A stretch of 64,000 nt of DNA from a virus (taxonomy: Duplodnaviria > Caudoviricetes): IMG/VR virus record IMGVR_UViG_3300024346_000005; one strand, 5' to 3'. The notes beneath the pieces were generated by a model, which worked only from the letters and a program-made list of their open reading frames with translations, was not told the origin of the DNA and did not search any database. A program made the position numbers and the translations under genes. Below are positions 20,110 through 22,565 of this stretch, in pieces (positions within the stretch are counted from its first letter, which is position 1; each line of letters opens with the position of its first letter).

Positions 20110-22565
20110 ATGACTGCTACAATTGCTCAACAACGTTCCACAAATACTTGGAACGATTTCTGTGAGTGGATTACTTCCACTAACAACCGTCTATATGTTG
20201 GTTGGTTCGGAGTCCTTATGATTCCTTGCCTTCTTGCTGCTACGGTTTGCTTCATTATCGCTTTCGTTGGTGCTCCCCCAGTGGACATTGACGGCATTCG
20301 TGAACCAGTTGCCGGTTCTCTAATGTATGGAAACAACATCATCTCCGGTGCCGTTGTTCCTTCTTCTAATGCGATTGGTCTTCACTTCTATCCTATCTGG
20401 GAAGCTGCCTCACTTGATGAGTGGCTTTATAACGGTGGACCTTTCCAACTTGTTGTATTTCACTTCCTCATTGGCATCTATGCTTATATGGGTCGTGAAT
20501 GGGAACTTTCTTACCGTCTAGGTATGCGTCCTTGGATTTGTGTTGCTTACTCAGCACCTGTTGCTGCTGCGAGTGCCGTATTCCTTGTGTATCCTTTCGG
20601 TCAAGGTTCTTTCTCTGATGCTATGCCTTTGGGCATTTCTGGTACTTTTAACTATATGCTTGTCTTCCAGGCAGAACATAACATCCTTATGCATCCCTTT
20701 CATATGTTAGGTGTTGCTGGTGTTTTTGGAGGAAGTCTTTTCTCCGCAATGCATAGGGAACTGTGCCCTTGTTGAGTAATCAGCAAGTGAAAATCGGGTG
20801 AACTGCTGGAACCCTAAGTTACTAAAATGTTACTTGACTTATATAAATAACTCTGGTAACATAAACTGTATGACTAATCAGTACTTATCTTTTATTGAGG
20901 AATGTAAATCAAAAACATATCCTCCCAATACTTATCTTGAAGAACACCATATTGTCCCAAAACACGATGGTGGTCTTGATAATCCAGAAAACCTTATTTC
21001 ATTATCTTTTGACGACCACATACTCGCACATAAAATAAGGTACGATGTATACGGTCAAGTTTATGACTTAGCAGCATATAACTTGATGTGTGGTTTTGAT
21101 AGTGAAGGTTGGAGACTTCTTAGAGTTGAAGGTGCCTATAAAACACACGAAGCACTAAGATTATCCAAGAAAAACTTTTGGAGTTCTGATTATCAAAAAG
21201 AAATGTCTGCTCGTTCTGTAAAGTCTGAGTATGCTATGAAAATGAGAAGTATTGGTGGTAAAGTGGGAGGTAAAAATAGGAACAAAAATGTTGCTATTAC
21301 TTCTACTGATAAGTATATTTTCTCTTATACTAAAGTTGAAACAGTTTGTATAATAAACTGTGAAACTGGTGGAGAAGTTTTAGAAGAACTACAAAAAATA
21401 GTTCCCAATCAAAACTTCAAGAGGGTAACACCTCTACTAAAAGGACAAAGAGAAAATGCTTATGGTTGGTCTTGTAAAAAAGTTTAGTAATACGGCAATC
21501 AGCATCCAAGTCCTAGATACATCTAGGAAAGGTTCAGAGACTACCTGAGGGATATAGTTCCCTTAATAACAGGTTTAAGTGCCCGACAACCTAATAAAAA
21601 TAGGTTGATGATATAGTCCACTCCTTATGAAAATAAGGTACAATAGGGGTTCCCTCGTAACCTCTTCACTGGTTCGTGAAACCACTGAAACTGAATCGCA
21701 GAATTATGGTTATAAGTTCGGACAAGAAGAAGAGACATACAACATCGTTGCCGCTCATGGTTATTTTGGACGCCTTATTTTTCAATATGCTTCGTTTAAT
21801 AACTCTAGGTCGCTTCATTTCTTTCTTGCTGCATGGCCGGTTGTAGGCATCTGGTTCACCGCTCTTGGTGTTTCCACGATGGCTTTTAACCTCAATTGGG
21901 GTTCCGTTAAAGCAATTTAACGGCAAACATCGGATGAATTGCTGGAAACCCTCCAAATATAAGGGCAATCAGCATCCAAGTCTTGAGTACACTCAAGAAA
22001 GGTTCAGAGACTACCTGAGGGATATAGTTCCCTTAATAACAGGAATAAGCGTCCGACATCCTACTGGGATGAAGATATAGTCCTCTCCTTAAAGATGGTA
22101 AATTTAAGGAAACAGAGTAATGGTTTTAATTTTAACCAGTCCATCGTTGATAGTCAAAACCGAGTAATTCCTACTTGGGCGGACATTTTAAATCGTGCTG
22201 GTCTCGGCCTTGAGGTCATGCATGAACGGAACGCTAGATTTGTTGGTGTTCTTGCCTAGTAATAGGCATTAGTAAAATCGGGTTAAACGGGGAAACTCTC
22301 TATGAGACAATCCCGTACCAAGTCAGAAAGGGTTAAAGTTTTCTGAAAGGTCTAACGACTAGGTGGTGAGTCCCAACAATAATCCACCCACGAATGCCCG
22401 ACTCCTTAATAAACATAAGGATGAAGAGATAGTCTGAACTTACTAGCGATAGTAAGAAGTAGAGGATAAAGAACCACTACGATAACACAATTGCACAACT
22501 TTCCTTTAGATTTGGCGGCTGCAGAAACAACTTCGGTTGCTCTAACTGCTCCTTCTATTGGTTGA
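20110..22565 (+). CDS. psbA: photosystem II D1 protein; join(20110..20754, 21648..21892, 22118..22235, 22494..22565) = 359 aa, E130 (high-light type)
   Basis: Exons total 1080 nt and splice in frame; Y161, D170, H190, H198, H215, H332, E333, H337, D342 and A344 fall at canonical numbering. Confidence 0.96.
20842..20849 (+). promoter_or_regulatory. late promoter for the intron-encoded endonuclease
   Basis: Exact TATAAATA within the loop of the ATGTTAC/GTAACAT stem (20827-20862). Confidence 0.7.
20870..21487 (+). CDS. intron-encoded HNH homing endonuclease (205 aa from ATG 20870)
   Basis: [31 protein letters not shown]; basic C-terminal region; sits in the P5 loop of intron 1. Confidence 0.88.
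   Translation: MTNQYLSFIEECKSKTYPPNTYLEEHHIVPKHDGGLDNPENLISLSFDDHILAHKIRYDVYGQVYDLAAYNLMCGFDSEGWRLLRVEGAYKTHEALRLSKKNFWSSDYQKEMSARSVKSEYAMKMRSIGGKVGGKNRNKNVAITSTDKYIFSYTKVETVCIINCETGGEVLEELQKIVPNQNFKRVTPLLKGQRENAYGWSCKKV
21893..22117 (+). mobile_element. group I intron 2 (225 nt, no ORF) inside the psbA L297 codon
   Basis: P1 AACCU/GGGUU with U-G pair, terminal G22117, core AATTGCTGGAAA, CAATCAGCA, GTTCAGAGACTA, AAGATATAGTCC; splicing restores AFNLNGFNFNQ. Confidence 0.92.
22236..22493 (+). mobile_element. group I intron 3 (258 nt, no ORF) between psbA A336 and H337
   Basis: P1 AACGCU/GGUGUU, terminal G22493, core AACGGGGAAA, AATCCCGTA, TCTAACGACTA, AAGAGATAGTCTG; splicing restores [13 protein letters not shown]. 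Confidence 0.92.

Follow-up and report, generated by a model that had tools for sequence, protein, structure and literature searches.

Three group I introns of two ribozyme lineages in one viral psbA gene

Introduction

Group I introns and homing endonucleases are already known from phage psbA, the gene for the photosystem protein D1, and the locus described here is a further example of this kind. We analyzed the psbA gene in the IMG/VR record IMGVR_UViG_3300024346_000005 (Duplodnaviria; Caudoviricetes), a stretch of 64,000 nucleotides (nt) that we refer to as the window. In the cyanophages S-PM2 and S-RSM88, psbA contains one intron of 212 nt, which is inserted between codons R334 and N335, after nt 1002 of the coding sequence. 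The ratio of spliced to unspliced psbA RNA in S-PM2 has been reported to depend on light (PMC5931967), and the intron site of this phage is the target of the free-standing endonuclease F-CphI (PMC6083498). For S-CBWM1, two psbA introns are annotated in GenBank, and we read their junctions as approximately nt 649 and 1011. In S-SRM01 (our locus L001; MW015081.1, 207378-209800) we found a single psbA gene with introns at nt 276 (910 nt, containing an open reading frame, ORF, of the HNH type), 750 (209 nt) and 1002 (207 nt), followed downstream by an F-CphI-like gene. The GenBank record of this phage gives psbA as two partial D1 proteins and an endonuclease, and its authors inferred one likely psbA intron (PMC8557907).

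Multi-intron psbA genes have long been known in green-algal chloroplasts. The number of group I introns in the gene is four in Chlamydomonas, eight in Hafniomonas and ten in Oedogonium (PMC2442088, PMC12042916). The Oedogonium introns are located at nt 179, 276, 384, 408, 525, 548, 570, 645, 754 and 898, and several of them bear HNH ORFs in L5 (PMC2442088). The chloroplast gene is similar to its phage counterpart in carrying many group IA introns with HNH ORFs in L5, although its host is an organelle and not a phage, and the likeness is one of site positions, not of compared ribozymes. Two or three group I introns also occur in other phage genes, namely in orf142 of Staphylococcus phage Twort and in the DNA polymerase and terminase genes of the Bastillevirinae (PMC11878797). 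In these cases the genes, the hosts and the intron lineages all differ from those of the window.

The window shares with S-PM2 both the host gene and the phage family. Instead of the single intron at nt 1002, it contains three introns, at nt 645, 890 and 1008, and none at the S-PM2 site. The S-PM2 intron is about 84% identical to window introns 1 and 2 over the core; it shares its ribozyme lineage with these two introns and not with intron 3, although the S-PM2 site lies just 6 nt 5' of the intron 3 site. Window intron 1 carries its own HNH gene, whereas the S-PM2 intron does not, and F-CphI has a counterpart in the window, a homologue located after psbA (45% identity, E 2e-30). S-CBWM1 and S-SRM01 are similar to the window in having a multi-intron psbA with an intron-encoded HNH-type endonuclease, and S-SRM01 also in having an F-CphI-like gene 3' of psbA, but the insertion sites in both phages differ from the three sites of the window. 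We conclude that the window very probably contains a functional cyanomyovirus psbA gene that has been colonised by three selfish, self-splicing group IA introns belonging to two ribozyme lineages.

Results

The psbA gene starts with an ATG at 20110 and ends with a TGA at 22563-22565, in agreement with the initial annotation, which had placed it at 20110-22565. Gene callers and IMG break it into two 'Photo_RC' pieces, an error of the same kind as the fragment misannotation in the S-SRM01 record. It should be annotated as one intact gene in four exons and not as a set of fragments (Table 1). When the four exons are joined, they form an ORF of 1080 nt that encodes 359 amino acids. The spliced product aligned without gaps to the solved structure of Synechocystis D1 (6wj6_A) over residues 1-358 (E 4.1e-220), so that standard D1 numbering applies; this alignment bears out the earlier claim that exon joining gives an intact D1 protein. 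The boundaries that were first tried for intron 2 produced a frameshift and were rejected, and the junctions 21892|21893 and 22117|22118 restore the frame. All three introns are located in highly conserved parts of D1, as expected from the view that such introns insert in conserved sequence. In unspliced psbA RNA, translation would reach a stop at 20775, six codons past H215.

According to the initial annotation, the three introns are group I introns located after H215, within L297 and before H337, each with a U-G pair in P1, a terminal G and a recognisable catalytic core. The boundaries, the Rfam scores and the P1 and P10 pairings confirmed this description in all its parts. We used the Rfam covariance model RF00028, with a gathering score of 50 bits, as the test for a group I catalytic intron. 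Intron 2 (88.0 bits) and intron 3 (63.4 bits) both scored above this value, as did natural ORF-less introns at site 645 (83.7-91.2 bits), which are 96-99% identical to the ribozyme part of intron 1. All three 5' exons end in T (U in RNA), and the last base of every intron is G. The guide sequence of each intron forms P1, with its U.G pair, on the last bases of the preceding exon and P10 on the first bases of the following exon. In intron 1, the guide AGGGAACU-GUGC is complementary to the ligated junction GCAU|GGUUCCCU, which gives a P1 of 4 bp and a P10 of 8 bp; the whole twelve-base guide, AGGGAACUGUGC, pairs with exon 1 and exon 2. Intron 2 has a P1 of 5 bp (AACCU/GGGUU) and intron 3 a P1 of 7 bp (GAACGCU/GGUGUUC), and the P10 of both is 4 bp.

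An alignment of 17 representative introns from different sites recovered P3, P4, P5, P6 and P8. Compensatory double changes keep the pairing at 17 of the 27 core pairs, with almost no pair broken. P7 (GACUA/UAGUC) is invariant across this alignment and is therefore uninformative on covariation. The RF00028 alignment also revealed an insert between P7 and P3' that is able to form P7.1 and P7.2. We take such an insert to be typical of subgroup IA, and the window introns are assigned to group IA on this assumption. All three introns are members of the group I ribozyme family.

Comparison with alleles that have no ORF shows that the HNH insert of intron 1 occupies about 20820-21489, in L5. Residues H26, H27, N41, H50 and H54 of the HNH protein are invariant in the alignment, and the HNH motif is intact. 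ORF-bearing introns at site 645 were found in the window and in loci L026, L034 and L096, with HNH proteins that are 96-99% identical, and ORF-less introns at this site were found in L042, L043, L045, L046, L048 and L057. Furthermore, an intron 1 allele in which 670 nt, the HNH ORF included, are replaced by CCTTTATGG is present in a DNA run (X6) and in an RNA run (X16). This result indicates that ORF-plus and ORF-less forms of intron 1 coexist in nature. The 90% cluster of the window HNH protein has 599 members, and the exact protein is indexed in 106 blocks of a public assembly collection. Its matches in a protein atlas are generic phage HNH clusters only. A profile search matched an HNH homing endonuclease from the green alga Chaetophora lobata (39% identity, pairwise E 6e-33). 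In addition, a EukProt transcriptome protein, P0024 (421 amino acids), is 49% identical to the intron 1 HNH protein and contains the C-terminal module of that protein three times; P0024 could be the product of an algal organelle intron ORF or a phage contamination.

A tree of intron cores showed that clusters follow the insertion site and not the genome, and that there are two lineages. Window introns 1 and 2 fall into the first, together with the S-PM2 intron and those at sites 179-890, 1002 and 1011. The second comprises the introns at sites 992 and 1008, window intron 3 included. Introns 1 and 2 have an overall identity of 80.5% and hardly differ between P6 and P3', while their guide sequences are different; intron 2 and the S-PM2 intron are 84% identical. 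We also considered whether intron 3 might be the S-PM2 intron, but rejected this on account of the offset between the two sites (1008 versus 1002) and the difference in ribozyme lineage. Orthologues of intron 3 with at least 90% identity occupy the same site in about 50 IMG/VR contigs, and no full-length relative was present among the cultured phages in the collection examined. Neither intron core was found in cyanobacteria by exact-match scans of one genome per prokaryote species, from which diverged copies would escape.

Sequences similar to intron 3 were also observed outside psbA. The stretch 22284-22316 in this intron matches exactly, over 33 nt, 12 records of phiKZ-like Pseudomonas jumbo phages (SL2, PA02, OMKO1 and others), in which the matching positions carry no annotation; these positions probably belong to a group I intron core that is missing from the annotation of these phages. 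A 20-mer from J8/7-P7 of intron 3 occurs in 26 viral loci without psbA (L061, L064, L065, L071 and others), which suggests that relatives of the intron 3 lineage occupy other phage genes. The same 20-mer also matches GenBank entries, among them tape-measure genes of Clostridium phages and, in Streptococcus phages, positions without annotation.

To place the window among other phage psbA genes, we scanned IMG/VR with a 24-mer from the core of introns 1 and 2, which gave 51 loci, all in psbA, and with a 20-mer from intron 3, which gave 81 loci, 55 of them in psbA. De-replication of both scans resulted in 93 intron-bearing psbA loci with 44 complete genes; because the loci were baited with intron sequence, the counts that follow are not population frequencies. 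Only sites with near-perfect flanking matches were counted; automated junction calls erred at gapped tblastn hits or at micro-exons. Among the 44 complete genes, 26 contain one intron, 8 two, 4 three, 4 four, 1 five and 1 six (L057), so that 10 of the 44 have three to six introns. The well-supported sites are nt 179/184, 230, 276, 317, 548, 556, 645, 750, 890, 992, 1002, 1008 and 1011, and with the S-CBWM1 site at nt 649 added there are about 14 insertion sites in phage psbA. All three window sites recur elsewhere: an intron occupies site 645 in 9 loci, site 890 in 11 and site 1008 in 37. The exact trio of 645, 890 and 1008 was seen only in identical copies of the window allele.

The initial annotation was right in citing S-PM2 as a precedent with a single psbA intron, which lies at R334|N335. 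Its view that three introns in one phage psbA are unusual did not hold, given the two introns of S-CBWM1, the three of S-SRM01 and the baited complete genes with three or more, and the recurrence of all three insertion sites largely removes the notion that they are rare. The window psbA is thus an ordinary example of a common pattern, in which many viral contigs carry one to six psbA introns. We found no paper on three or more introns in a phage psbA within the searchable literature, and absence there is no proof of being unpublished.

Some of the genes recovered in the scans have unusual arrangements. The psbA gene of L057 (IMGVR_UViG_3300032271_000996, ~6018-9994, minus strand) is split by six group I introns, none of which scores below the Rfam gathering value, into seven exon segments that cover D1 residues 1-359. 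The psbA gene of L034 contains five introns and a sixth one truncated where the locus ends. At the 3' end of psbA in L046, L014, L121, L043 and L045, two introns are located 16-19 nt apart (992 together with 1008 or 1011), with a micro-exon between them.

The closest relative found, G001 (IMGVR_UViG_3300027211_000161; L004/L016), has 36% of 31-mers in common with the window, which corresponds to an estimated average nucleotide identity (ANI) of about 97%. Two introns interrupt its psbA gene, one of 814 nt at nt 317, which contains an HNH-like ORF, and one at nt 750; sites 645, 890 and 1008 are empty, and no Endo VII-like gene follows downstream. From the leader into the 5' region of exon 1 the two sequences are 98% identical, but in the 3' exons identity is only 78-85%, a drop that is the pattern expected from co-conversion during homing. 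The different intron set in a relative with about 97% ANI suggests selfish homing elements rather than a conserved regulator. Whole introns, as well as the endonuclease ORF, are polymorphic for presence and absence. The polymorphism of the HNH ORF, the intron set of G001 and the F-CphI homologue downstream of psbA together point to selfish, mobile elements.

Table 1. Positions of psbA exons, introns, endonuclease genes and flanking signals in the window
Feature	Position	Strand	Details
Sigma-70-like promoter candidate (TTGACA-17-TATTAT)	19937..19965	+	11/12 consensus matches, upstream of psbA
PhotoRC-II RNA motif, psbA 5' leader	19982..20072	+	RF01717, 45.4 bits (gathering score 39)
psbA exon 1	20110..20754	+	D1 residues 1-215; last codon H215 = CAT
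Group I intron 1	20755..21647	+	893 nt; site nt 645 (H215|G216); ORF in P5 loop
Intron-encoded HNH homing endonuclease ORF	20870..21487	+	205 amino acids; PF01844, 25 bits (cut-off 21.4)
psbA exon 2	21648..21892	+	G216 through second base of L297; 245 nt
Group I intron 2	21893..22117	+	225 nt; no ORF; site nt 890 (after second base of L297 codon)
psbA exon 3	22118..22235	+	Third base of L297 through A336; 118 nt
Group I intron 3	22236..22493	+	258 nt; no ORF; site nt 1008 (A336|H337); separate ribozyme lineage
psbA exon 4	22494..22565	+	H337 through G359, plus TGA stop
Intrinsic-terminator-like hairpin, then T run	22573..22595	+	Downstream of psbA
Free-standing Endo VII-family gene, F-CphI homologue	22654..23175	+	PF02945, E 3.4e-22

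Discussion

The features of the locus are consistent with the following course of events. After transcription from the psbA promoter, each intron would be excised by two-step, guanosine-initiated transesterification, with the 5' splice site set by P1 and its U.G pair and the 3' splice site by the terminal G and P10. Ligation would yield the 1080-nt mRNA and from it an intact D1 protein, whereas translation of unspliced RNA would end at the early stop in intron 1. Homing during co-infection is the most likely means by which the introns persist and spread. Intron 1 could home by means of its own P5-loop HNH endonuclease. Intron 3 would probably be linked to the downstream F-CphI-like endonuclease by collaborative homing; the gene for this enzyme starts 88 nt past the psbA stop, and the intron beside it is located at nt 1008 and not at the S-PM2 site 1002. 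Intron 2, which has no ORF, would probably be carried by co-conversion, because it is only 245 and 118 nt away from the neighbouring introns; reverse splicing is less likely. The endonuclease activities, their targets and the route of intron spread are all deduced from sequence.

To look for spliced RNA, we compared contigs from three metatranscriptomes and one DNA run with the window. In two RNA runs from different studies, a contig joins 20754 to 21648 exactly, and the compared DNA run has no such joint, which lends weak support to splicing. RNA contigs also cover the ORF of intron 1 and the boundary between exon 1 and intron 1, and these could represent precursor RNA or DNA carry-over. Most of the RNA depth over the exons comes from other psbA genes, and uncovered stretches are uninformative.

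Several observations weigh against the interpretation of the three introns as mobile, self-splicing elements in a functional gene. In the contigs with the intron 1 joint, the shorter side is 21-24 nt long, and the mRNA of intron-less relatives would read alike. The RNA joints over introns 2 and 3 carry differences in exon sequence and were for this reason assigned to relatives, so that we infer splicing of the window allele from the intact structure of its introns. With the ORF in place, intron 1 scored 44.1 bits (E 1.7e-9), which is below the RF00028 gathering score; we attribute this result to the ORF insertion (653-670 nt) alone. The target sites of both endonucleases are putative. Of the de-replicated loci, 66 have a psbA intron at nt 992-1011, and in 17 of these an Endo VII-like gene is located at most 400 nt downstream of psbA; none of the 17 loci that lack an intron in this interval has such a gene (Fisher p = 0.018). 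These loci are, however, intron-baited and not phylogenetically independent. The co-occurrence fits an intron that shields the phage's own psbA from the enzyme. On the other hand, 49 of the 66 loci with an intron in this interval have no Endo VII-like gene, so that intron 3 does not require it.

A different explanation is that the introns are kept for control of D1 output, which would hinge on three splicing events under the influence of light, redox state, GTP or Mg. The light-dependent ratio of spliced to unspliced RNA reported for the single S-PM2 intron (PMC5931967) is consistent with such a gate, as is the light- and redox-regulated splicing of the four Chlamydomonas psbA introns that is cited in the same paper. 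It is also true that unspliced RNA cannot yield D1, given the stop six codons after H215. However, intron sites differ between close relatives (317 and 750 in G001 versus 645, 890 and 1008 in the window), and the number of introns per gene ranges from 1 to 6 across loci, which would not be expected of a conserved regulator. Moreover, the presence and absence of the endonuclease ORF is the classic sign of a selfish homing cycle. We therefore consider this explanation unlikely. Intron turnover between close relatives is rapid, which argues against regulation as the reason for the presence of the introns; regulation may nevertheless arise as a side effect, in view of the light-dependent splicing reported for S-PM2 (PMC5931967).

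Much less probable still is a decaying gene, with psbA as a pseudogene that is being lost and whose introns have ceased to splice. The score of intron 1 below the Rfam gathering value could be taken as a sign of decay, and the evidence for splicing of the window allele is indirect, as described above. Yet the exons are in frame and encode a full-length D1 that is gapless relative to the solved structure, none of the three introns has lost P1, P10, the U.G pair or the terminal G, and compensatory changes maintain the core pairs across the intron family. The HNH ORF is intact as well, and the identical allele is abundant in many samples.

An assembly chimera, in which introns from different co-occurring strains were joined via conserved exons, might be suspected in a metagenome assembly with short exons 2 and 3 (245 and 118 nt), within which the unitigs of run X6 break, but it was rejected and is excluded for practical purposes because the region 19900-23200 (3301 nt) is 100% identical in four independent assemblies from different samples (two MEGAHIT, one SPAdes and one JGI), and sites 890 and 1008 are combined independently in L023, L087, L112, L066 and L068, and sites 645 and 1008 in L096. 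In addition, 14 DNA runs labelled as marine metagenome contain 86-99% of the 31-mers of the allele.

Colonisation of a functional psbA by selfish introns thus remains the preferred interpretation. The wider pattern comprises about 14 insertion sites, as many as six introns in one psbA gene, lineages that are specific to their sites, and some sites shared with chloroplasts; it is apparently undescribed in the searchable literature. In a tentative reading, which we regard as rather doubtful, cyanophage psbA is an undescribed hot spot of group I intron radiation that possibly exchanges introns or endonuclease genes with green-algal chloroplast psbA. One IA lineage may have been re-targeted to at least ten sites in a single gene by guide change alone, and exchange with chloroplasts may have occurred through the shared, highly conserved D1 coding sequence. 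If the Mesostigma-based numbering of the Oedogonium sites is equal to the cyanobacterial numbering, which we assume to be valid for D1 residues 1-344, the Oedogonium sites 179, 276, 548 and 645 coincide with phage sites, the last of them being the site of window intron 1, whereas Oedogonium has no intron at the window sites 890 and 1008 but has one at 898. Exchange between phages and chloroplasts is considered possible because of these coinciding sites and the relationship of the HNH protein to a green-algal one. In a weaker variant of this reading, the stacked introns may tune D1 output to light.

The wider pattern could show how mobile introns spread among co-infecting phages. It is also of practical significance for surveys that use psbA as a marker, in which amplicon sizes and gene calls are wrong for intron-bearing alleles.

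Flanking features

The T4-type late promoter motif TATAAATA lies 25-29 nt ahead of the start codon of three ORFs, namely the HNH ORF (motif at 20842-20849), the Endo VII-like ORF (motif at 22625-22632) and the ORF after it, which starts at 23273 (motif at 23248-23255). Across the window, the motif is no commoner than expected by chance, and its placement ahead of both endonuclease genes is suggestive only. The sigma-70-like promoter candidate upstream of psbA (Table 1) is a consensus match only, and such sites in the region are likewise no commoner than chance. The PhotoRC-II motif in the psbA leader is also found upstream of psbA in related loci. An ORF of 39 amino acids of the high-light-inducible type (Chloroa_b-bind) is located immediately 5' of psbA, at 19482-19601. 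Elsewhere in the window, Rfam models identified six tRNA genes (550-5751), an abiF RNA motif (505-541) and a wcaG RNA motif (6513-6610).

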